A stretch of 64,000 nt of DNA, from NCBI GenBank assembly GCA_018005585.1, contig JAGMZX010000010.1:830-64829 (forward strand), in the 5' to 3' direction. Of the stretch, positions 20,705-64,000 are shown piece by piece (position 1 is the stretch's first letter; the number at the start of each line of letters is the position of its first letter). Made by a program: the position numbers and the translations under genes. This DNA comes from Candidatus Hydrogenedentota bacterium. GTDB taxonomy: Bacteria > Hydrogenedentota > Hydrogenedentia > Hydrogenedentales > JAGMZX01. A model generated the notes under the pieces. That model was not told the origin of the DNA. It worked only from the letters and a program-made list of their open reading frames with translations, and ran no database searches.

Positions 20705-23059
20705 TTACTCGCGGATAAGCTGTCGCAGCTTTTTCCACACAACCGCGGAAGGCATTCCGCCCTCGCGGATACGACGGACCAGGCGCTGCCAGTCCCGGCG
20801 GTGTCCCGCCGACACTTCGCGCCGACGCAGCACGGCGGCAAGAAGACCGTTCTGCTCCGCGTCAAGCGCGGTGGCATCTACCCGGCGCAGGAAGTCCAGC
20901 AGCCGGCGCACGTGCGCGGCGAAGGGGCCGCACTGCTCCGTGTTGCCTTCCTGGAGGAGCGCCATCAACAGCGCCAGGGACGCAGCCACGCGCGCCGCGG
21001 GCGAATCGCCCGGCATGCCGCCGTCCGGTTCAAGCAGGCCCGCTAACGCGACCATGTCGTCCATATGGGCCTGCGCATCTCCCCCGCTGTCGCGTTTGCT
21101 CTTCCTCACAAAGCCGCCACGGGGCGCGCTGACAGGTGCTGGCTCCGCGCACACTGCAAAAAACCCGCTATCTACTCTTTGAAATAGTACATCCTCCCTA
21201 TAGTCAGGACTACATAAAAGTAGGGGACTCGGCGCAAAATAAGACTCGAACTGAACGCCCTCCGGCATGCCGACGGGCACGACGCGCGTTTCCGGCATTT
21301 CGCCCGCCGCGTCGCCCGCGCGCGCGGCCACGGCCACAAGCGTCATGACGCGGCTGCTCAGTTCGTATTCGCGGCTGACCTGCTCGAGTGCCTCCCTCCA
21401 CGTGCCGTCAGGCGTCTCCCACGCGCTTTGAGCGCGAGTGATCAGGCGCGCGCCCTGCAGCTGCCGCAGGGTCTCGCCAAGCCCGTCCGCCTTTGCATCG
21501 ATGAGAATCCGGTGCGACCGTGTTTCCCGGGCATGGTTCCACGTCAAGACCAGCGCGCCGGGCCCGTCCGCCGCGCACGACCCGAACAAGAGCAGTGGAT
21601 TGTCCTGGAACACGACATCGCGCGGCTGCGGTTCGAGCACGGGTTCCTGTAGCCCTTCGAAAACGCAACGCAGTTCTCGTGCGACCGGCTGCGCCACGGA
21701 TGAAAAGAGGCGCAGCGTCTCCATGTCCACCCGTTCGCGCGGAGTGGCAAACCGGCTCACCCCGCCGGTCTCTTGCGCCAGCAGCGCGAGGAACCGGTCC
21801 TGGCTTGCGCTGCCGATGCCGAGGCAATGCAGCCGCGCGTTGCATCGCCTGACCCGCGCTATGATGTCCTCGGTCCCGAAGACCTGGCCGTCCGTAACGA
21901 GAAAGAGGTCGCCGCCCTGGTCTCCGAGGAGCAGCACCGCGGCGTCCAGACCCTGAGCCAGCTCCGTGCCGCCGCGCGCATGCACCGTATCCAGGAAGCG
22001 CGCTGCCGCATCGCGGTTTTCCATGGTCCCGTTGAGCAGCGACGGACGAAACTGCTCGCTCGTCGAGTCGAATGCGACGATGCCGAACGTGTCCTGCTCG
22101 GACAGGGCGCCGAGGCAGGCCTTGACGGCATTGCGCGCCTGCTGCATGGGCGCGCCGCTCATCGAACCGGAGCGGTCCAGCACGAACACGACGCGCCTGT
22201 GCGCTTCCAGGGGTTCGCCAAAAACCGTTGACGGAACCAGCACCGCGAAGCGGCCCCTGCCGCGCGCGTCCGTCCCGGCGTACGAGAGTACCGCGGCGGC
22301 GTCTCGCCGGGCCTCGAGGACCAAGTCCCGATTCGGCACATCGCCTTCGGTCGCCAGTTGCACGCGCACATCCCCGTCCCGGGTCAGGCACCGGATGGCG
22401 TGGGACGGCGAACTGACCTCGACGGCTGCGCCGCCGAGGCGGACGTCGAGGTCGAATCCGACGCGGTGCAGCGATGACGCATCCTGCTTCCAGACAGGCA
22501 ATACCAGGTCGTCAAACGGCGCATTGGGCAGTTCGAGTTCTCCCGTGGCAGTGTCGTCAAAGAAGGCGCGGGTCTGCGCGTGATAGGCGGGCGCAAGCGC
22601 GAAGGGAAACCGGAACCGCAGACCATCGTCGCGGGCTTCCACGCCCGCGAGCAGCTCGATCATGACCTGCACGTCTTCGCCCGGCTTCAGATTGCCCACC
22701 GTCAGATTCACGATGCCGTCGCGGTACGTGCGCGCCATGGTCGCAAGATGGCCCGCCTCGAGCCCGGCCTCGTACGCCTCCTGCGCTTCCGCCACGGGCC
22801 GCAGTTCCGAATGGACGTCAAAACCCGCGCCCACGACGCGAAACCGCTTCAGCGCGGCGTCGCGCGGCAGCATGAACGCATAGACCACCTCGAGCGGATG
22901 GTCTTCGGCCGAGCGGAAACCGTGGCGCACCACGAGGTGCGCGCCCACGGGCAGGATCGTGCCGGTCAGCCACAACTCCTGCATCGCCAGCCGGGCGTCC
23001 CGTCCGTCCGCCGCGCTGCATACGGAAAAAGAGCCCCCTTCAAGTGTTGTCGTACTCAT
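20705..23059 (-). CDS. VIT domain plus von Willebrand factor type A (vWA) domain protein
   Basis: 784 aa. An N-terminal VIT-like region is followed by a vWA domain with the MIDAS motif VLDRSGSMSG..GGTELAQGL. A C-terminal region of about 200 aa is unassigned. A GGGAG RBS precedes the ATG. The 5' end overlaps the MerR gene. Confidence 0.8.
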   Translation of the reverse strand: MSTTTLEGGSFSVCSAADGRDARLAMQELWLTGTILPVGAHLVVRHGFRSAEDHPLEVVYAFMLPRDAALKRFRVVGAGFDVHSELRPVAEAQEAYEAGLEAGHLATMARTYRDGIVNLTVGNLKPGEDVQVMIELLAGVEARDDGLRFRFPFALAPAYHAQTRAFFDDTATGELELPNAPFDDLVLPVWKQDASSLHRVGFDLDVRLGGAAVEVSSPSHAIRCLTRDGDVRVQLATEGDVPNRDLVLEARRDAAAVLSYAGTDARGRGRFAVLVPSTVFGEPLEAHRRVVFVLDRSGSMSGAPMQQARNAVKACLGALSEQDTFGIVAFDSTSEQFRPSLLNGTMENRDAAARFLDTVHARGGTELAQGLDAAVLLLGDQGGDLFLVTDGQVFGTEDIIARVRRCNARLHCLGIGSASQDRFLALLAQETGGVSRFATPRERVDMETLRLFSSVAQPVARELRCVFEGLQEPVLEPQPRDVVFQDNPLLLFGSCAADGPGALVLTWNHARETRSHRILIDAKADGLGETLRQLQGARLITRAQSAWETPDGTWREALEQVSREYELSSRVMTLVAVAARAGDAAGEMPETRVVPVGMPEGVQFESYFAPSPLLLCSPDYREDVLFQRVDSGFFAVCAEPAPVSAPRGGFVRKSKRDSGGDAQAHMDDMVALAGLLEPDGGMPGDSPAARVAASLALLMALLQEGNTEQCGPFAAHVRRLLDFLRRVDATALDAEQNGLLAAVLRRREVSAGHRRDWQRLVRRIREGGMPSAVVWKKLRQLIRE

Positions 23060-23462
23060 TCTGTGTCTCCCGTTCCTTTCTCAGATGTTCCGTCAAAGCG
23101 GCAATTCCCCGAATCACCCGCTTCATGCGCCATCCTTCAAGGTCACCGCGCACCTCGACTGTCACGTCCGGCGTCACTTGGAAGCGCCAAACCGGGACCG
23201 GCCGCGGCATCCGGCCTGGTTCAGGGTCCCCGGACTGGCGCAGCCGGATTTCCGCCAAGGTCAGACCCTCCGCCTGCAATTCCTGGATGCGCCGGATACC
23301 CGCAAGATGGTCCCGCGTGTACGCCGCCGCGCGCCCGGCCCGCACGGGGCCCGGCAAGACCCCTATTGCGATATACAAACGCACCGTCCGCGGCGAAACC
23401 CCGGCCGCGTCGGCGAGTTCTCCCAGTTTGAATTCCTTGGTCGAATCGGCACTCATGACCAC
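23040..23462 (-). CDS. MerR-family transcriptional regulator
   Basis: The N-terminal HTH reads KLGELADAAGVSPRTVRLYIAIGVL. It overlaps the start of the VIT-vWA gene by 20 nt on the same strand. Confidence 0.8.
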   Translation of the reverse strand: MVMSADSTKEFKLGELADAAGVSPRTVRLYIAIGVLPGPVRAGRAAAYTRDHLAGIRRIQELQAEGLTLAEIRLRQSGDPEPGRMPRPVPVWRFQVTPDVTVEVRGDLEGWRMKRVIRGIAALTEHLRKERETQNEYDNT

Positions 23463-23487: not shown

Positions 23488-23516
23488 ATTATATCGCCAA
23501 TATTCGACAGTGTCAA
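23488..23516 (-). promoter_or_regulatory. consensus sigma-70 promoter (TTGACA-17-TATAAT) driving the MerR/VIT-vWA genes
   Basis: The minus strand reads TTGACActgtcgaatattggcgaTATAAT. The -10 element ends about 25 nt before the MerR start. It lies in an otherwise GC-rich intergenic region. Confidence 0.55.
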
Positions 23517-23638: not shown

Positions 23639-25093
23639 TTACTGGAGTTGGAGCTGGTTCAGGATTTCCGGGTCTTCTTCGTCCCAGGCGAGGACGGTAT
23701 GACAGAGTTCGCAGTCGCCGCTGATGGCCTGTCCGTCTTTCGATTCATGGGAGTCATCATGGCAACGGAAACAGCCCGGGAAGGGATCCTGGTGGCCGAG
23801 GTTGTTGGGATACGTGTTCCAGGTCACGTTCATTTCCGGGAATACGTTGCGGCCGTAAATGCCCTGCAATTCCCGGATCGCGGCTTCAATAGCATCGCCT
23901 TGCTGCGCGGCAACATCGGGATAGTCCTTGGCGTAGAAATCGCGCACATGGGCGGCAATCAGATCGAGGTCGCCCGCGGCGCCTTGGATAGACTCGAGGG
24001 CTTCGACGCCGACACGCTTGATATAGGGCAGCGAGGCATCGATCGCGCCCGCGGCCAAGGACTGATCCACGGCCTTGGCGGGCGCGTGGAAGACGTGCGT
24101 GGGCCGGTTGTGACAGTCGATGCAATCCATCGTTCGGAATTCGGCGCGCGCGATTTCGTCTTCCGGCATCTGCAGGTCCGAGGCGCGGAACTCCGTAACC
24201 GTTCCGTCCGTCCCGGTGACCCGGACGATGCCAATCTTCTGCCGTTGTTCGTCCAGGGGCAGGTAGGTGGTGGTCTTGGCCGGGTCGATATGCCAGCTGT
24301 GGATGCCATGGCCACCGCCGTGGCCGCCGCCGATGTGCATGAGCAATACCGAATGCACGAGGGAGTTCGTCTCGTCATCCATATACTTCGGCACGACCCG
24401 GATGCGGTCGCCCGCGAATTTTTCGGGCCAGTGGCATTCCTCGCAGGTTTCCTTGGACGGGCGCAGTTCGTGCACGGGGCTCGGAATGGGGCGCGAATAG
24501 GTATTCAACGTGACCGCGAAGACCTGGCGTACGCCGGAGAGTTTCGACTTGGCGAACCAGTCCGCGCCGGGGCCGATATGGCACTCGACACAGGCGACCT
24601 TGGAGTGAGGCGAGTTGAGATACGCCGTATACTCCGGCGCCATCACGGTGTGGCAGACGCGGCCGCAAAACTCGACCGACTCGGTATATACCACGCCCTT
24701 GTAGCTGATGATGCCGATGATGAGCATATTGACTACGGAGAGCAGCGCCACGACGACGGCGATGCTGCGCACCCGCGGATTGTTGAAGTCCAGGACGGGG
24801 AAAGGCAGCGGCGGACCTGCGGCGGTCTCCGGCGTCTGTTTGCGCAACCGGAACCGCTGCCACAACGCACCCGCCGGGACAATCAGCAATCCCAAGACAA
24901 AGAACCCGGGCAGGACCAGGAACGTCACAATGCCAAGGTAGGGCGAATCGACCCTTCCCAGGATGCCCAAAGCCATCGTCACGGCAATCAGGATCGTGCT
25001 AGCCGTTACCAGGGTCGCCCCCAGCATCGTGACCCAGTTGGCCGTGAAGATGGCGGCAAACCCGCTCAGGATTCGGAAGATCACGCTGAACAT
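23639..25093 (-). CDS. membrane-anchored six-heme c-type cytochrome, NapC/NirT/NrfH-superfamily-like (putative quinol dehydrogenase)
   Basis: There are six CxxCH motifs (CGRVCH, CVECH, CEECH, CIDCH, CFRCH, CELCH). There are N-terminal TM helices. A strong RBS GAAGGAGG lies 4 nt before ATG-TTC (MFSVIF). The track ORF extends to 25240 without support. Confidence 0.8.
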   Translation of the reverse strand: MFSVIFRILSGFAAIFTANWVTMLGATLVTASTILIAVTMALGILGRVDSPYLGIVTFLVLPGFFVLGLLIVPAGALWQRFRLRKQTPETAAGPPLPFPVLDFNNPRVRSIAVVVALLSVVNMLIIGIISYKGVVYTESVEFCGRVCHTVMAPEYTAYLNSPHSKVACVECHIGPGADWFAKSKLSGVRQVFAVTLNTYSRPIPSPVHELRPSKETCEECHWPEKFAGDRIRVVPKYMDDETNSLVHSVLLMHIGGGHGGGHGIHSWHIDPAKTTTYLPLDEQRQKIGIVRVTGTDGTVTEFRASDLQMPEDEIARAEFRTMDCIDCHNRPTHVFHAPAKAVDQSLAAGAIDASLPYIKRVGVEALESIQGAAGDLDLIAAHVRDFYAKDYPDVAAQQGDAIEAAIRELQGIYGRNVFPEMNVTWNTYPNNLGHQDPFPGCFRCHDDSHESKDGQAISGDCELCHTVLAWDEEDPEILNQLQLQ

Positions 25094-25424
25094 CAAGCCT
25101 CCTTCTTTGGGGCGCATGCTCCGCCAGGCGCCGACAATTCCGTGCATTATGCGGTATCGGGCAAGTCTACTGCACACGCCCGGCCATTGCATCCGGAAAA
25201 AGGACCACGTGCCGCGGGTTACTCCGGGAAAACTACCCACTATTCGGCATACTGCGATTGCGTCTCAGGAGAGTGTCCGGCAAGGACGCCACAAGAGCCG
25301 GGGGGACGTGCAGGAATTTTGGGTACTTGTTACGTGCTGCAGTGGCGCGTGTCTGCCCCGTGTTTTTCACGGATGTATTGGCAAAAACTAATGATGTATG
25401 CTTCCTTCACCTTAGCGAAGGCCG

Positions 25425-26276
25425 ATGGGGAGAGCTATTTTGGAAGTTCGTCGCATGCAACGCCGGAATTTGCCGGTTTCGTTTTCACCGCGCCGTCGCT
25501 CCCTTGTGTCCCTGGTTCGCGCATGGGGCGTCTGTCTCCTGGCGGCGGCTCTGTTCGGGCTAAGCGGCTGCCCCGGCAAACCTGGCGAGGTCGGGACACA
25601 GGTCTGTCTGCAGTGCCACAATGGCGTCCTGGCGCCGGACCGTTCCGAATTCCCGGAGAGCGCGCATGCCGTGGTCGCCTGTGAGACCTGCCACGGTCCG
25701 GGCTACCTGCACGTGCGTAACGGCGGCCGCGGGGGCCTGCTCATTCAGACGCCGGAAAACAGCGATGCCCAGTACGGTCTCTGCGGGCGCTGCCATGAGA
25801 CGGAGACGGCGGACCATCTGGAGAGCCGCCACGGTTCCAGCGGCGCGTTGAACTGCGCCGATTGCCATGACGTACACGGCGCGGCGCGCACGGCGCCCGC
25901 ATTCGCCAACAACAGTCTCTGCCTGACATGCCACCGGCACGCCGGTTTCGCGACGAACGCCGAAATCGAGGCCCACACCTTTCATTCGGTCGACCCCGCG
26001 GGGACTGGCGCCAGCCGCTGCTCGGGCTGCCATATGGTTCCGCTGCAGCGGTTCGACCAGGCGGAGGGCGTCTACAGCCATACGATGGTCCCTGTCCCGC
26101 CGGTCGCGTCCAACGAGGCGGCGGAGGCGGGTGTCACCCCGACGCCGCCAAACTCGTGTTCGGGCATCGAGGGGTGTCATGACGGGACCGTGCGGACGGC
26201 GCCGGTATTCGATGTGGACACTCCGGAGCATAATGAGTGGCTCCAGATTGTCTACGACGCACGATATGGGGAGTAA
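25425..26276 (+). CDS. six-heme c-type cytochrome lipoprotein (periplasmic)
   Basis: There are six CxxCH motifs (CLQCH, CETCH, CGRCH, CADCH, CLTCH, CSGCH). The signal peptide ends in the lipobox LSGC. The start is 25425 or the ATG at 25455. Confidence 0.8.
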   Translation: MGRAILEVRRMQRRNLPVSFSPRRRSLVSLVRAWGVCLLAAALFGLSGCPGKPGEVGTQVCLQCHNGVLAPDRSEFPESAHAVVACETCHGPGYLHVRNGGRGGLLIQTPENSDAQYGLCGRCHETETADHLESRHGSSGALNCADCHDVHGAARTAPAFANNSLCLTCHRHAGFATNAEIEAHTFHSVDPAGTGASRCSGCHMVPLQRFDQAEGVYSHTMVPVPPVASNEAAEAGVTPTPPNSCSGIEGCHDGTVRTAPVFDVDTPEHNEWLQIVYDARYGE

Positions 26277-26360
26277 GAGTCTGTGCGGAACCCGGGCCAT
26301 CCAGGAATACAGGACCGCAATGCGGACGCGAAAGGGCGTCCGCACCGGGGAGGAATCCTT

Positions 26361-27923
26361 GTGAAAAGAGCGGGTCGGGGACGTTGGCTGGTTTGGGGTA
26401 TTGGCCTGTTCGCGGCGAGTATCGCCGCCGTCCCCCATGCCCAGGAAACGGAAGCCGCGGCGCCGGGCGATACGGCCGTCGCGGCCGAAGACGCGGCAGG
26501 CGGCGCTGCCGCCGAAGAACCCGCCCCGGCGGGGCGCGACTGGGTCAGCGGCAGTTTCCGCACCGAATTGGATACGGCATGGACGGATGAAGACACGGAC
26601 GTGGACCTGAACCAGACGCTGCGCTTGAACCTGGACCCCGCCAACCATCCGCGGCTGCATATGCGCGGGCTCGTGGGCCTGCACGAAGACCTGGACTCGA
26701 GCGAGGCGCAGTCGAGCGTGCTGCGCGACATCAACGACGGGTCGGGCGAGTCCGTGCGGGCGCGCCTCTACTTGCTGTATCTCGACGTGGACGATGTCTG
26801 GGGCGACTCCACGCTGCGCATCGGCCGCCAGCGCATCGAGGGCGGCGCGGCGTACAACCGCATCGACGGCGTTTCATTCTCTCAGCGGGCCGGGCGTTGG
26901 GATTGGTATGTGTTCGGCGGCGCGCGCGCGTCCGTGTACGACTCCACTTCCGGCGACCTGGCGGCCGGGGGCGGCGTCGCGTTCCGGCCCGACGGCCGCA
27001 CGCGGCTCAGCCTGGACACGTATTGGGGCGAAAAGCACCGCGAAAATGATGATGAGGTGTATCTGAGCCCGCTCGCCGCACTGCTGGGTCTGGAGTATCC
27101 CCGGCGCATCAAGTCAGATATCGGCGATAACCTGGTCGCGCTCAGCCTGTGGCGCCAGCTGACGCCGAACACGAGCCTCTTCGGCCGCCTGCGGCTGCAC
27201 GACGGCGAATTGGACGAAATCAGCGCGCAACTCGCCGGGTATTGGCCGGGGGCGGACCTGAGCTACGAGGTCTCGTACCGCGGGCGCTTCGCCACGGCAT
27301 CGGACCGCGTGGACGACCTGACCTCGTTCTACGAAGTGTTGGGAAGCTATGAGGAATTTCACAATTTCCTCGCGGCGCTGCACAAGCCGATTACGGAACG
27401 CATTGAACTCTCGCTGGAAGCCGAGTTTCACAACGCGGACGACGACTGGCAGACGGCCAACCGCGATTTCAACCGGTACGCGGCGATCTTGACGGTCGCC
27501 CCGCTCTTCAAGGCGACGGACATTACCGTGGCGCTAGAAAAATGGGATATCAGCGGCGGGGACGGCACGTGGACGTTCACCGGCGAACTCACTCATCATT
27601 GGGGGGACACGCTGGCCTTGACGTTTGGGGCGGATTATGAGCGGTACGAGGACCGCATTACGCAGTACTACGCGCCGCTGGGCATTGTGGATAAGCTGCT
27701 TGTGGCGTTCGTACCAGGATACTACGCGGGCTACAATCCGCTGGTTTTCCTGTTTGACCAATACGCCGTGACCACCTACGAAAACGTTTACTCCCTCTAC
27801 ACGCGGCTGAAATGGGCCGTACGCAAGAATCAGGACGTCTCCCTCGAGGTTACCTACGAAGAGGACGACGGGCCCGATTCGCCATACTGGCGCGTGCAGG
27901 CGGGCTACACGATTCGGTTCTGA
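26361..27923 (+). CDS. outer-membrane beta-barrel (porin-like) protein
   Basis: A GTG start at 26361 has a GGAGG RBS. The signal peptide reads VKRAGRGRWLVWGIGLFAASIAAVPHAQE. It has an acidic N-terminal linker, alternating-hydrophobic beta-strand patterns and a C-terminal ...YTIRF (terminal Phe). It is flanked by cytochrome genes. Confidence 0.6.
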   Translation: MKRAGRGRWLVWGIGLFAASIAAVPHAQETEAAAPGDTAVAAEDAAGGAAAEEPAPAGRDWVSGSFRTELDTAWTDEDTDVDLNQTLRLNLDPANHPRLHMRGLVGLHEDLDSSEAQSSVLRDINDGSGESVRARLYLLYLDVDDVWGDSTLRIGRQRIEGGAAYNRIDGVSFSQRAGRWDWYVFGGARASVYDSTSGDLAAGGGVAFRPDGRTRLSLDTYWGEKHRENDDEVYLSPLAALLGLEYPRRIKSDIGDNLVALSLWRQLTPNTSLFGRLRLHDGELDEISAQLAGYWPGADLSYEVSYRGRFATASDRVDDLTSFYEVLGSYEEFHNFLAALHKPITERIELSLEAEFHNADDDWQTANRDFNRYAAILTVAPLFKATDITVALEKWDISGGDGTWTFTGELTHHWGDTLALTFGADYERYEDRITQYYAPLGIVDKLLVAFVPGYYAGYNPLVFLFDQYAVTTYENVYSLYTRLKWAVRKNQDVSLEVTYEEDDGPDSPYWRVQAGYTIRF

Positions 27924-27942
27924 ATCTTCAGGAGAAGGACGC

Positions 27943-28965
27943 ATGCTGCGACGCAACGCGGGACGCTATGGAGTGCTCGGGGCTCTGCTGCTTTGCCTCG
28001 CCGTCGCCTGCTCCACACTGACGCAGCAAAGCGGGGCGCGACGGGACCGCGGACTCCGCTTTCCGCATGAAAAGCACACGGAAGACATGGCGTGCACGGA
28101 TTGCCACGACATGACCGACCCCGAGGCCGTCATTCCAGACCATGACCTGTGCTCGACCTGCCACGACATCGACACGGACAACCCCGCGCCGGAGCAGTGC
28201 GGCCTTTGTCATACGCGCGAGGATTATTCGCTCGATGCGCGGGCGCGCGCGCTGACGGATGAGGTCAAGTTCAGCCACGACCCGCACGCGGCCGCGGAAC
28301 TGGAATGCGTGGCGTGCCACGAAAAGCCCGATGAGCGGCTTCTGCCGGACAAACCGATGAAGCCTTTCTGCATGGACTGCCACGCGCAGAAGAACCCGCG
28401 ATTGAACGCGTGCGAAGTCTGCCATGCAACCTGGAACAAGGACGTCGTGCCGCAGTACCGGTCGGGAAGCCGGATCCAGCACGACGCGCCGCAAATCTGG
28501 GCGCATTTGCACGGCAAGGAGGCGCGCATCGACCCTGCGTACTGCAAGCTCTGCCACGATACGGAGACGTCGTGCGAAGAGTGCCACCGCACCACGCCGC
28601 CGCGAGACCACACGGTCTCCTGGCGCCGCCAGGGGCATGGCTTCCACGCGACCATCGACCGCGGCAAATGCGTCGTGTGCCACGAAGAAGACTCCTGCAT
28701 CGAATGCCATGAGAACACGCAGCCCTCGTCGCATCGCGGTTCCTGGGGGCATCCGATGAACGGCCACTGCATATCGTGCCACTATCCGCCGGAGCGGACC
28801 AATTGCACGGTGTGTCATGAATCGGTGGAACACGACGGCGCCATGCCTTCGCCGCACGATTTCGGCCTGTATCCCGGAGCGTGCGGATTATGCCATCCGG
28901 GCGGCGTGCCCTATCGCGCGCCACACCTGCTGAACTCGACCGTGAGCTGCAAGACCTGCCATTGA
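27943..28965 (+). CDS. 14-heme c-type cytochrome lipoprotein
   Basis: There are 14 CxxCH motifs in 340 aa. The signal peptide has a relaxed lipobox (LCLAVAC). AGGAG sits before the ATG. The start is 20 nt after the beta-barrel gene stop. Confidence 0.85.
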   Translation: MLRRNAGRYGVLGALLLCLAVACSTLTQQSGARRDRGLRFPHEKHTEDMACTDCHDMTDPEAVIPDHDLCSTCHDIDTDNPAPEQCGLCHTREDYSLDARARALTDEVKFSHDPHAAAELECVACHEKPDERLLPDKPMKPFCMDCHAQKNPRLNACEVCHATWNKDVVPQYRSGSRIQHDAPQIWAHLHGKEARIDPAYCKLCHDTETSCEECHRTTPPRDHTVSWRRQGHGFHATIDRGKCVVCHEEDSCIECHENTQPSSHRGSWGHPMNGHCISCHYPPERTNCTVCHESVEHDGAMPSPHDFGLYPGACGLCHPGGVPYRAPHLLNSTVSCKTCH

Positions 28966-61641: not shown

Positions 61642-61884
61642 CTACCGCGGTGGCGCGACAAGCACCCGATAGAATTCCGCCTCGTGATCGGATAGTTGCC
61701 GCTCGCGGATGAGTGTTTCGATGCGTCCGATATCCACATCGCGCGGCACGCCCGCCGCGCCCAGTCCCTTTGCATCGCCTTGCCTCTCCGCAGGAATGGC
61801 AGGCCGCCAGACCAGCGCTGCGAAGACCAGCGCTACGATGCACACCACTGCGATATAGAGTGCGTCATTTGTTTTCATGAACAT
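61642..61884 (-). CDS. small membrane-anchored hypothetical protein
   Basis: 80 aa: MFMKTNDALYIAVVCIVALVFAALVWRPAIPAE... It lies immediately downstream of and overlaps the NosR-like gene by about 10 nt. The track ORF extends upstream in the frame of the neighbouring gene. Confidence 0.4.
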   Translation of the reverse strand: MFMKTNDALYIAVVCIVALVFAALVWRPAIPAERQGDAKGLGAAGVPRDVDIGRIETLIRERQLSDHEAEFYRVLVAPPR

Positions 61885-63983
61885 TTGCTTTCGGGAACGC
61901 ACCTGTCGCAACGGATACAATCCAGTTCCCCCGCATGGCGCAGGCCCAAGTCGCAGCGCGCAGGATACGTGGGCGGACTCAACTTGCGCAACAGGCGCGG
62001 CCGGTTCAGCAGCGCCAGAAACGCGCCGGCCGGACACAGGTTGCGGCACCAGAACCGGCGATACGGGAACGAGAGCGCGAGCAGAATACCTCCGGACAGA
62101 AGGGTAAAGCGGTCCTTCAAAACACTGAAGACCGTCGTCAGGGGGTCCGCGTCCAGGAGCGAAAAATCGCGCGACAGCGCGAAGCGCAGCACCAGCAAGA
62201 AGAGCAAGAGATACTTGACCGCGCGCCCGTATCGCCACGCCTGCTTGCCCGGGTCGGTGGCGACCCGCCGGGGCCGCAGGTCGCCGACCAGCTCCTGCAA
62301 TGCGCCAAAGGGGCACAGGTAGCCGCAATAGACGTTTCCCCACAGGAGCGTGCAGCACGGAACCAGCGCCACCATGAAAAAGGCGCCGCTCATACCCGGT
62401 TGTGGAAACGCTCCCGCGAGCGCCGACAGCACGTGATGGGAGGAGTATTGCAGGTTGAGATACAGTCCAAGCACCGCAACAACGGCCAAAAGGAAGACAC
62501 GCCTGCGCCACCGGCCCGGGAAGAAGCGCAGGAACAGCGCTCCGCCCGTGAACGCCGCCAGCCAGGCGAAATGGGCGTCAAACCATGGCGTGGCATGGGC
62601 AGATACCGCGAGTTCCGCGTGAAACAGCGGCCCGAGTTCCTTGGCGGAGACCTCGATAGTGCGCAATATCGCCTGCGACGTGACAGTCGCACCGCTGACA
62701 CCGTCAATCTGCGCGAATGGCTCGCCGCCGAGCACGTGGATTCCGCGAAGCCCGTCCAGCCATTGCGTGGTCATGGCGAGATAGGCGGGTGTTTCCCGCG
62801 ACGCCACGACGCGCACGCCTCGCAGCACGCCCCGGGCATCGATTGCGACGGCCAGCGTGATGGTCCCTGCGAAACCCACGACCTCCGGCGCTAGGTCCGC
62901 GCTGTTGAAGACGGAAACGGGGCTCTCCTCGGGGGGCGCCGATCCTGGCGCGCGGTAACAGGCAATCGTTCTGCCGCCCGGCAACGTCAGGTTCTCAGTC
63001 TGCACTTCCGGCACGCCGAGCAGCGCGCGGGCGGCGTTCTCGAAGACTTCACGCGCATCGCCGGGCATGGCCGCGGCGATCACGTTGGATGCGAGCATGG
63101 CGAACAGGCCCGCGCCGAAGAGGACGTATCCAAGCGGGCGCTGCCGCCGGTCGAAGGCGTCCGGCTCGGTCCGGGCGCGCCGGTAGCAGCGTATCCCCCC
63201 GATATTTGCCGCCAGGAACAGCGCCAGGAGAGCCAAGGCCGTCGCGGCGCCGAACAGCGGCAGAAGCACCAGACCCGTAACCAAGGCGCCGCCCGCGGCG
63301 CCGGCGTGGTCGAGCGCTTCGAGGCGCGCGCCCGTGGGCGCTTCCGCCGCGCCATGTTGCCGCATGCGCCACGACACGAGCGGAAAGTAAAAGCCCGTGA
63401 GCGCGCCCGCACCGGCGAAACACGCGGCAAACGCCGCCAGACCGCCGGCGCGCACGGTTCCAGCCACGGCACAGAGAAGGGCAAGGTGCGCGAGCAGCGC
63501 CCCCGGCGCGAGCAACACCGGTTCCCGGCCCCTCCCCGCGAGGAACCGCTCCCCCGCCGCGCTTCCGGCGAACGCGCCGAGCATGAACAGCGCGGACAAG
63601 AGGCCGATGTGCAGATACAACGACCCGAAGACCGATTGGAACGCAAAGAGCAGCACCACGCTCAGCGCCATGCCGACCCAGCCCGCGGAGAACAGGAGAA
63701 CCCCGCTGTCAAAAAGGCCGGGCAGCGCCGCGTGGCGCCTGCCCCGCGCATAGACGCCGCGCAGAATTGCGTAGATCGCCAGGGCGGCCGCAAGCAGGGT
63801 CGCGCCGCGCGACAGCAGTGCGCGTACGGCCGTGACCGGCGCCGCAAATCCCGCCTGGCGTAACGCAAACAACAGCGTATATGCGAGCGCCTTAGGATGC
63901 GCGTCGGTATTGGCCAGCAGCGCTTCGGGCATGTCTTCAGCGGCGCCGCGATACGCCGTTCGCTGAAACGCGATACGGTCCAT
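61875..63983 (-). CDS. NosR/NirI-like polytopic membrane protein with FMN-binding domain and CxxxCP iron-sulfur motifs
   Basis: 702 aa. There are multiple TM helices. An FMN_bind-type motif (DGVSGATVTSQAILRTIE) is present. The C-terminal TM region carries the Fe-S motifs CGYLCPFGA and CRNLCPAGA, and ends CIRCDRC. The start is near the window edge at 63983. Confidence 0.6.
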   Translation of the reverse strand: MDRIAFQRTAYRGAAEDMPEALLANTDAHPKALAYTLLFALRQAGFAAPVTAVRALLSRGATLLAAALAIYAILRGVYARGRRHAALPGLFDSGVLLFSAGWVGMALSVVLLFAFQSVFGSLYLHIGLLSALFMLGAFAGSAAGERFLAGRGREPVLLAPGALLAHLALLCAVAGTVRAGGLAAFAACFAGAGALTGFYFPLVSWRMRQHGAAEAPTGARLEALDHAGAAGGALVTGLVLLPLFGAATALALLALFLAANIGGIRCYRRARTEPDAFDRRQRPLGYVLFGAGLFAMLASNVIAAAMPGDAREVFENAARALLGVPEVQTENLTLPGGRTIACYRAPGSAPPEESPVSVFNSADLAPEVVGFAGTITLAVAIDARGVLRGVRVVASRETPAYLAMTTQWLDGLRGIHVLGGEPFAQIDGVSGATVTSQAILRTIEVSAKELGPLFHAELAVSAHATPWFDAHFAWLAAFTGGALFLRFFPGRWRRRVFLLAVVAVLGLYLNLQYSSHHVLSALAGAFPQPGMSGAFFMVALVPCCTLLWGNVYCGYLCPFGALQELVGDLRPRRVATDPGKQAWRYGRAVKYLLLFLLVLRFALSRDFSLLDADPLTTVFSVLKDRFTLLSGGILLALSFPYRRFWCRNLCPAGAFLALLNRPRLLRKLSPPTYPARCDLGLRHAGELDCIRCDRCVPESKCS

Positions 63984-64000
63984 GGGATACAGCGCGCGCA

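Follow-up and report, generated by a model that had tools for sequence, protein, structure and literature searches.

A conserved porin-cytochrome gene module and a putative outer-membrane electron conduit in Candidatus Hydrogenedentota

Gene arrangement and the ImcH-like inner-membrane cytochrome

The 64,000-nucleotide stretch of DNA analyzed here (the window) comes from a Candidatus Hydrogenedentota bacterium and not, as the original prediction had supposed, from a Planctomycetota-like genome. Four open reading frames, which we call A to D, were confirmed within it with small corrections. Gene A lies on the minus strand, and B, C and D follow one another with short gaps on the plus strand, where they form a single operon that is divergently transcribed from A; both the divergent arrangement and the tight packing had been predicted, and the gene order is kept in 34 species genomes. 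The intergenic region between A and B (25,094 to 25,424) presumably holds the promoters of both transcription units. A scan of this region for the sigma-70 consensus gave no match, so the promoters are placed there from the gene arrangement alone. The genes around the module in the window encode glycoside hydrolases, a sulfatase and CstA. A neighboring MerR gene is not kept in relatives.

Gene A (23,639 to 25,093, minus strand) has an open reading frame of 533 residues and probably starts at Met50, since the resulting length of 484 residues equals that of the 99% identical protein P0100 and of nearly all its homologs. Hydropathy analysis places three N-terminal transmembrane helices at approximately residues 20–48, 50–79 and 106–136 of the 484-residue protein. 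Directly after the third helix comes an atypical heme motif, CX3CH (CGRVCH, residue 143), followed by five CXXCH motifs at residues 168, 217, 324, 441 and 461. The earlier description of A as a six-heme cytochrome holds only when the CX3CH is counted, the CXXCH motifs alone amounting to five. The protein scores 33.8 bits against the Pfam model Cytochrom_NNT (PF03264, cutoff 24.1), and partial matches to NrfH models mark an NrfH-like region.

ImcH proteins are defined by three transmembrane helices, a CX3CH motif beside the transmembrane region and five to nine CXXCH motifs (2018 survey; PMC4251993). Judged from its sequence, A fits this family definition in its transmembrane layout, its CX3CH plus five CXXCH motifs, their spacing and its NapC/NirT-like region, which narrows the original comparison of a NapC-like protein with ImcH, CbcL or CymA. 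The motif spacing in A (24/49/107/117/20) is closely similar to those of Geobacter ImcH, GSU3259 (24/49/106/117/20(/38)), and of GBC82363.1 from bacterium HR10 (24/49/107/116/20), and ImcH homologs have their transmembrane segments at residues 13–35, 45–72 and 100–131 (Table S3, PMC6295460). The comparison with Geobacter ImcH is one of motif layout, and the latter has a seventh, C-terminal heme that A lacks; A belongs to the six-motif subtype, together with proteins from Anaeromyxobacter, many Acidobacteria and bacterium HR10. The 2018 survey listed 12 phyla, Hydrogenedentota not among them. In Geobacter, the reduction of high-potential extracellular acceptors genetically requires ImcH (PMC4251993), and we regard A as a putative quinol oxidase.

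The predicted outer-membrane barrel and the two lipoprotein cytochromes

The reading frame of C is open from position 26,283 (546 residues), and its most likely start is the GTG at 26,361, given the GGAGG located 7 nt upstream and the length of the 100% identical protein P0001, which is the 520 residues that result. Gene C thus occupies positions 26,361 to 27,923 of the plus strand. The protein carries a Sec signal peptide (ending in AAVPHA, followed by QE), contains no cysteine and continues after the signal peptide with a disordered Ala/Glu/Pro linker, residues 48–82 ahead of the first strand being disordered. Past this linker the mature protein spans only about 430 residues, which are modeled as a plug-less, 22-strand outer-membrane beta-barrel ending in an invariant Phe. 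Searches with C against Pfam and NCBIfam returned no match. Membership in the MtrB/PioB family, and with it in MtrAB or MtrCAB systems, was rejected because no sequence relation to MtrB/PioB was detectable, and so was identity as a TonB-dependent receptor, given the lack of any Plug or TonB_dep_Rec match in Pfam and of any match in NCBIfam.

Downstream of the barrel, D (27,943 to 28,965, plus strand; 340 residues) starts with an ATG preceded by an AGGAG ribosome-binding site and located 19 nt past the stop codon of C, rather than the 20 nt first given. The predicted 14 hemes stand: D contains exactly 14 CXXCH motifs, approximately one heme per 23 residues, and its last residue is the His of the final motif. 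In an alignment of 41 homologs all 14 motifs and the lipobox Cys23 are invariant, as are 13 additional histidines, a 14th being nearly so; this pattern is consistent with bis-His ligation of the hemes. Profile and structure-database matches indicate that D is made of c7-type units, with no match to MtrA or to a catalytic family. The AF2 model was poor in the C-terminal half (pLDDT 63), and a structural search with it gave no useful match.

Upstream of the barrel, B (25,425 to 26,276, plus strand; 283 residues, with an alternative start at Met11, position 25,455) has a lipobox, LSGC, with its cysteine at residue 49. The six CXXCH motifs on which its description as a six-heme protein was based are present, and a CX5CH (C245...C251-H252) is invariant among 28 homologs, in which the lipobox Cys is also conserved, so that B probably binds seven hemes. 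Seven additional histidines are invariant in the homolog alignment. The top PDB match of B is MtrA of the MtrCAB complex (6r2q_A, E=1.7e-9), and its matches to the DmsE/GSU2203 decaheme models are partial, cover the first ~150 positions and score far under the cutoffs. Against TIGR03508, B reached 51.8 bits (cutoff 192.2) over model positions 1–151 of 258. Considering this partial match below the cutoff and the presence of six CXXCH and one CX5CH, B was rejected as a ten-heme member of the MtrA/DmsE family.

Taken against the doubts raised with the original prediction, these results are favorable to a conduit: C is modeled as a transmembrane barrel, both B and D carry lipoprotein signal peptides, and the cytochromes of the module match electron-transfer families only (c7/c3 and MtrA/DmsE-like), with no match to a nitrite, hydroxylamine or sulfite reductase family.

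Conservation of the module and its relation to known conduits

Genomes of 34 Hydrogenedentota species keep the B-C-D synteny. Of their loci, all 33 with downstream sequence have D after the barrel, and 31 of the 32 with upstream sequence have B before it. This conserved gene order, together with the invariance of the heme motifs and lipobox Cys of D among its 41 homologs, implies that the four-gene module is not a chance assembly. Linkage to A is looser, with an A homolog within 6 kb of the barrel in 14 of the 34 genomes; among loci whose flanks are complete, this amounts to only about one in two. Related Hydrogenedentota loci also hold MtrC/MtrF-like decahemes (PF22113, E 1e-47 to 1e-58), a CbcL-like cytochrome (11 hemes plus cytochrome b561) and c554-like tetrahemes. 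Many relatives have the MtrC/MtrF-like decaheme and the tetraheme, but the window has neither, and therefore the local module may be incomplete or rely on genes elsewhere.

A profile search with the barrel retrieved 574 representative barrels. In the seven distant loci sampled (one from Brocadiales and six others) a D-like cytochrome invariably follows the barrel, the stop codon of the one often overlapping the start codon of the other, and some of these loci also carry ImcH-like proteins and MtrC/MtrF-like lipoprotein decahemes of 700–1000 residues. At the Brocadiales locus (L035), identity is 24% between the barrel and C (E=1e-38) and, over the full length, 36% between the cytochrome and D (E=9e-61); this cytochrome has 13 CXXCH and one CX4CH. 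The pair is followed by NrfH/NrfA-like genes, and neither B nor ImcH is nearby.

Such a conduit had been expected to be unusual for Planctomycetota, an expectation that does not agree with the literature. Kuenenia kuste4024/kuste4025 have been listed as a porin-cytochrome (Pcc) system since 2014 (Shi et al., 2014, PMC4245776), the anammox Pcc consists of a porin-like protein and a cytochrome of 338–344 residues with 12–14 hemes (Shi et al., 2014, PMC4245776; Shaw et al., 2020), and a Brocadia ortholog of this type is expressed during electrode growth. The Brocadiales pair homologous to C-D fits the published order, size and heme number of this Pcc, which suggests that C-D may be orthologous to kuste4024/4025 themselves. 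The anammox system comprises two genes, whereas the Hydrogenedentota module adds B upstream and often a linkage to ImcH.

The module also agrees with the general description of Pcc clusters by Shi, Fredrickson & Zachara (2014). The 14 motifs of D lie within the range of 5–14 given for the adjacent cytochrome. Most clusters, though not every one, further include an outer-membrane lipoprotein cytochrome, for which B and D, each with a conserved lipobox Cys, are candidates. With Geobacter OmbB-OmaB-OmcB it shares the logic of a porin-like barrel (18–22 predicted strands), an adjacent small, heme-dense cytochrome and a lipoprotein cytochrome, although this is a likeness of architecture, the heme counts being 14 and 6+1 here and 8 and 12 in Geobacter. 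Furthermore, both cytochromes are lipoproteins here, the gene order is B-C-D, and the OrfR-type regulator of the Geobacter Pcc is absent. Among distant relatives of C, the order of barrel, D-like cytochrome and large lipoprotein cytochrome mirrors ombB-omaB-omcB. The mapping onto omaB-ombB-omcB in the original prediction is probably reversed: D probably corresponds, by homology and by position, to the "periplasmic", barrel-associated Pcc cytochrome, with B as an accessory. The likeness to Shewanella MtrCAB lies in a multiheme wire inside an outer-membrane barrel and in the MtrC/MtrF-like decahemes of related loci. Two features speak against D as the cytochrome within the barrel: MtrA is the best solved relative of B and not of D, and D, unlike MtrA and OmaB, is predicted to be lipidated.

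Proposed electron path and alternative explanations

We propose, with a probability of about 0.68, that A-B-C-D encode a Pcc-type outer-membrane electron conduit together with its inner-membrane entry point, D being the wire within the barrel. A, anchored by its three helices in the inner membrane, would oxidize menaquinol and hand the electrons to the periplasm, where the seven-heme, MtrA-like B and/or other carriers would relay them to D. The lipid-anchored D, with 14 probably bis-His hemes, would sit inside the plug-less barrel C, shielded from lipid, and carry the electrons over the outer membrane. The exit point would be the outer hemes of D, or B should it face outward, and the acceptor would be extracellular or non-permeant, with Fe(III)/Mn(IV) minerals or chelates, humic quinones or a partner cell as candidates. 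We infer this function and the direction of flow, like the localization, heme loading and complex formation of the Hydrogenedentota proteins, from sequence and genomic context.

Were C an ordinary nutrient channel or a TonB-dependent receptor, its adjacency to the cytochromes would be structurally meaningless, but this is highly improbable considering the brevity of the mature protein, the missing receptor domains, the same two cytochromes flanking the barrel in 34 species and the D-like cytochrome next to its distant homologs in other lineages. The sequence contains nothing that fixes the direction of flow. Multiheme conduits are intrinsically bidirectional, homologs of CymA and CbcL occur in reducers and oxidizers alike, and there are reports of Cyc2-type iron oxidase homologs from Hydrogenedentota MAGs. 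The conduit could therefore import electrons in the manner of MtoAB/PioAB, from Fe(II), reduced humics, a cathode-like mineral or a syntrophic partner, with A reducing quinone or the electrons passing to a periplasmic or terminal oxidase. We consider such import unlikely, however, since the ImcH homologs found so far all come from Fe(III) reducers and are proposed to act solely as quinol oxidases, the related loci hold MtrC/MtrF-like decahemes typical of reducers, and the neighboring glycoside hydrolases, sulfatase and CstA point to an organoheterotroph rich in reductant.

A trans-outer-membrane path could also serve a soluble or colloidal acceptor (polysulfide or S0, humics, chelated metals or an oxyanion at the surface) without any respiration of metal oxides. 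Pcc clusters are known from S0-, selenate- and nitrate-respiring and anammox bacteria that do not reduce Fe/Mn oxides, the Brocadiales pair adjoins NrfH/NrfA-like genes, and the window has no MtrC/MtrF-like terminal reductase. Nevertheless, neither the window nor any of the 34 Hydrogenedentota loci shows a soluble-substrate reductase gene linked to the module, and Geobacter ImcH is tied to high-potential extracellular acceptors, which makes this explanation improbable as well.

Within the preferred reading, a Pcc-type conduit discharging electrons outward, the module is most likely an already known kind of system that is conserved across Hydrogenedentota. More tentatively, and with considerable doubt, C-D, a plug-less 22-strand barrel with an N-terminally lipidated and probably all-bis-His wire of 14 hemes, may represent a separate, multi-phylum porin-cytochrome lineage apart from both MtrAB and OmbB/OmaB. 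Hydrogenedentota would be a major reservoir of this lineage, which would work here without an MtrC-like terminal reductase; none would be needed because the 14-heme D and B would be long enough to reach acceptors. In that case a polysaccharide-degrading, supposedly fermentative phylum could respire extracellular metals or humics.

Hydrogenedentota are usually described as fermenters or as lipid and polysaccharide degraders, and to our knowledge no metal reducer of the phylum has been cultured. The phylum-wide presence of the conduit and the links to ImcH, CbcL-like and MtrC/MtrF-like proteins in relatives suggest that many Hydrogenedentota may discharge electrons outside the cell. Independently, a FeGenie survey classed 15 Hydrogenedentota MAGs as putative metal reducers. 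If many members do discharge electrons in this way, the role of these bacteria in sediments, groundwater and bioreactors would have to be modeled anew, for instance with glycan degradation coupled to Fe, Mn or humic reduction. The four-gene module is a compact candidate for heterologous reconstitution.

A profile built from C-D would improve the annotation of extracellular electron transfer in several phyla, anammox bacteria included, given that neither Pfam nor NCBIfam has a model of the barrel family. Its members appear in GenBank as "TonB-dependent receptor" or "hypothetical", the former being the label of P0497 (MBP8128559.1), which falls in the 90%-identity cluster of C.

Gene products of the module

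The four open reading frames (ORFs) of the original prediction are all present in the window, and their coordinates needed only minor corrections. The inner-membrane cytochrome gene, A, occupies 23639-25093 on the minus strand; its start almost certainly lies at Met50 of a 533-residue ORF, because the resulting 484 residues equal the length of the database homolog P0100 (99% identical) and of nearly all other homologs. On the plus strand, B (25425-26276) encodes a cytochrome with six CXXCH motifs and a classical lipobox (LSGC), and C (26361-27923) encodes the barrel protein, which at 520 residues has the same length as its 100% identical homolog P0001; the best candidate start of C is the GTG at 26361, which has a GGAGG 7 nt upstream. 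The start of D (27943-28965, plus strand) lies 19 nt past the stop of C and is preceded by AGGAG; its product is a 340-residue lipoprotein cytochrome with 14 CXXCH. Outside A-D, no ORF of the 64-kb window contains a CXXCH motif. Several other long ORFs (23648-25684, plus; 25560-26684, minus; and others, up to 678 residues) overlap the module genes or run antisense to them. Their GC3 is about 0.60, compared with 0.77-0.80 in real genes, and they are a side effect of the high G+C content (63%).

Protein A had been described as NapC-like and does pass the Pfam NapC/NirT threshold, but a more specific assignment is possible. ImcH proteins are defined in the literature by three N-terminal transmembrane helices, an adjacent atypical CX3CH motif and five to nine CXXCH motifs. 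Protein A displays hydropathy segments at about 20-48, 50-79 and 106-136, followed by one CX3CH (CGRVCH) at position 143 and five CXXCH, and its membrane-proximal part aligns weakly to NrfH. Its heme-motif spacing is 24/49/107/117/20, the published values being 24/49/106/117/20 for Geobacter sulfurreducens ImcH and 24/49/107/116/20 for bacterium HR10. On this predicted architecture and on the comparison of spacing with the GSU3259 values, we assign A to the ImcH family as a six-motif subtype. Hydrogenedentota is absent from the phyla listed in the 2018 ImcH survey.

Among 41 homologs of D, the 14 CXXCH motifs, 13 further histidines and the lipobox Cys23 are invariant, and one more histidine nearly so, a pattern that fits bis-His ligation of every heme. 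The protein is built of c7-type units with about 23 residues per heme, and it matched no catalytic family. Protein B probably binds seven hemes, since its six CXXCH, a CX5CH and seven extra histidines are invariant; its lipobox cysteine is also conserved, and some homologs carry eight CXXCH. The closest solved structure is MtrA (6r2q_A, E=1.7e-9), and the DmsE and GSU2203 decaheme models cover its first ~150 positions with scores far under their cutoffs, so that B is best described as a putative MtrA-like lipoprotein. Two metagenome-assembled genomes (MAGs) hold two paralogous B-C-D modules each (L005 and L024 in PW10.concoct.19; L027 and L031 in binchicken_co248_263), in which B has six CXXCH in one copy and eight in the other; the paired conduits may be adapted to different acceptors or potentials.

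Protein C has no sequence match in Pfam, NCBIfam or PDB sequences, and its profile finds nothing among the latter even at E<=10. The AlphaFold2 model, calculated from a 35-sequence alignment, is a 22-strand barrel (pLDDT 79, pTM 0.70) preceded by a signal peptide and a disordered Ala/Glu/Pro linker, in agreement with the beta-barrel originally proposed. The last residue is a phenylalanine, invariant among homologs; a C-terminal Phe is the usual assembly signal of outer-membrane proteins. C is thus a predicted outer-membrane beta-barrel. It contains no plug domain, and the GenBank name of MBP8128559.1, 'TonB-dependent receptor', is therefore unsupported and looks wrong.

Conservation within and beyond Hydrogenedentota

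With each species represented by a single genome, scanning found the barrel in 34 genomes, nearly all of them Hydrogenedentota. The order B-C-D that the original prediction suggested surveying is kept: D directly follows the barrel in all 33 loci with downstream sequence, and B precedes it in 31 of the 32 with upstream sequence, the exception being L025 (2-1288, plus strand), where the position of B is filled by a cytochrome of 21 or more hemes. A homolog of A lies inside the fetched flanks of 14 loci. Two neighbors were rejected as parts of the module, namely a MerR-family regulator gene (23040-23462, minus strand), which adjoins it in none of the 34 loci, and a VWA/VIT protein, not kept beside it in any of them.

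Many related loci contain additional cytochromes. An ORF of 700-900 residues with ten CXXCH adjoins the ImcH homolog in about a dozen loci (L010, L011, L014, L017, L021-L023, L028-L031 and L034), and all three that were tested fit the MtrC/MtrF domain II/IV model strongly (E 1e-47 to 1e-58); a c554-like tetraheme is often found immediately 3' of D. The window has neither, and the decaheme ORF is also missing from L002, its nearest species-level relative. Upstream of the module in L004 (2278-4326, plus strand) lies a CbcL-like protein with 11 CXXCH and a cytochrome b561/Ni_hydr_CYTB domain.

An exhaustive profile search recovered 574 representative barrels (E<1e-3), the named lineages among the distant relatives being Brocadiales, Omnitrophota and one 'Deltaproteobacteria bacterium TL4'. 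In all seven distant loci sampled, a D-like cytochrome (275-346 residues, 7-14 CXXCH, usually with a lipobox) comes right after the barrel. The Brocadiales locus L035 shares a barrel 24% identical to C (E=1e-38) and a cytochrome 36% identical to D over its full length (E=9e-61), making C-D homologous to an anammox-type pair. By description, the L035 pair corresponds to kuste4024/4025 of Kuenenia, a porin-like protein and a cytochrome of 338-344 residues and 12-14 hemes, proposed to cross the outer membrane unaided (PMC4245776); an ortholog of this type was expressed by electrode-grown Brocadia. In L035 (6001-10659), an NrfH-like tetraheme and an NrfA-like pentaheme with five CXXCH and no CXXCK come directly after the barrel and 14-heme genes. 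Distant loci also hold large MtrC/MtrF-like lipoprotein decahemes 3' of the D-like gene, an NrfCD-like module and ImcH-like proteins, the one in L038 being 35% identical to A (E=2e-72). The order barrel, D-like gene, large lipoprotein cytochrome is that of Geobacter ombB-omaB-omcB.

A genuine barrel-D fusion would have strongly supported the placement of D inside the barrel. Two candidates were rejected: P0315 (976 residues; L038:5001-7931) has an Arg-rich stretch at its junction with an entire signal peptide and lipobox (LLVAFGC) behind it, and so most likely arose by frameshift or read-through, and P0078 (818 residues) is a garbled fusion, probably of the same origin.

A probable porin-cytochrome conduit and its alternatives

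A porin-cytochrome conduit (Pcc), as originally proposed, is the best-supported model for the module, which has the architecture that defines Pcc clusters. A would oxidize menaquinol at the inner membrane, B and/or other carriers would pass electrons over the periplasm, and D, sheathed in the plug-less 22-strand barrel, would conduct them through the outer membrane, outside which an extracellular or non-permeant acceptor would take them up. The analysis establishes the sequence features, the barrel prediction, the homologies and the synteny; from these we infer localization, complex formation, the barrel-resident cytochrome, flow direction and acceptor.

The original prediction, in likening the operon to omaB-ombB-omcB, put B in the place of OmaB and D in that of OmcB. 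We reverse this mapping and propose D as the likely cytochrome inside the barrel, for two reasons: D is inherited together with the barrel in every case, and in both homology and position it corresponds to the cytochrome called 'periplasmic' in Pcc clusters. Against this placement, the resemblance to MtrA belongs to B, and D carries a lipobox whereas MtrA and OmaB are not lipidated.

The absence of a plug and the strict co-inheritance with cytochromes speak against C being an unrelated nutrient porin or TonB-dependent receptor and contradict that reading. Inward flow, with oxidation of Fe(II) or a cathode, is disfavoured by the link to ImcH, a family so far known only from reducers, and by the heterotrophic context. 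A soluble or colloidal acceptor in place of minerals is quite possible, given that Pcc clusters occur in non-metal-reducers.

Porin-cytochrome conduits and ImcH are established, as is their spread over many phyla. The module falls outside the MtrAB family, since its barrel does not match MtrB/PioB and neither B nor D is an MtrA/DmsE-family decaheme. The Desulfovibrio ferrophilus DFE_0461-0465 clusters were dropped as possible relatives, that genome reportedly having no apparent porin-cytochrome conduits. What sets the module apart is two cytochromes predicted from their lipoboxes to be lipidated, a putative heme at the CX5CH of B, a barrel family without a database model and a compact form without an MtrC-like reductase. 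A FeGenie-based survey had already classed 15 Hydrogenedentota MAGs as putative metal reducers; our literature search for a described extracellular electron transfer (EET) cluster in the phylum returned only survey-level FeGenie and Cyc2 mentions, and no paper on this B-C-D/A cluster. To specialists in EET the module would come as no surprise; its value lies in better annotation and in a fresh look at the physiology of a phylum without cultured members.

Host and surrounding sequence

Homologs of A, C and D are overwhelmingly labelled Candidatus Hydrogenedentes or Hydrogenedentota, and the 90%-identity clusters of the three window proteins include MBP8128557.1, MBP8128559.1 and MBP8128560.1 from a GenBank Hydrogenedentes MAG. 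The glycan-degrading context first described holds, with GH65-, GH123- and GH31-type hydrolases and a sulfatase, besides CstA; the phylum is Hydrogenedentota rather than Planctomycetota-like, an impression owed to a DUF1559/N-methyl protein. The same gene cluster also occurs on contigs from MAGs that bear the labels Bathyarchaeia archaeon, Nitrospiraceae or FCB group (L030, L006, L007, L009 and others), probably through mis-binning or mis-classification.

The divergent region between A and B, when scanned, gave no sigma-70 consensus promoter. A perfect 12/12 match (TTGACA, 17 nt, TATAAT) lies at 23488-23516 on the minus strand, upstream of the MerR-family gene, in the gap that separates its start from the stop codon of A. 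About 33 kb from the module, a 707-residue ORF (61875-63998, minus strand) with FMN_bind and Fer4_5 domains, reaching the window edge, encodes a NosR/NapH-like membrane redox protein.
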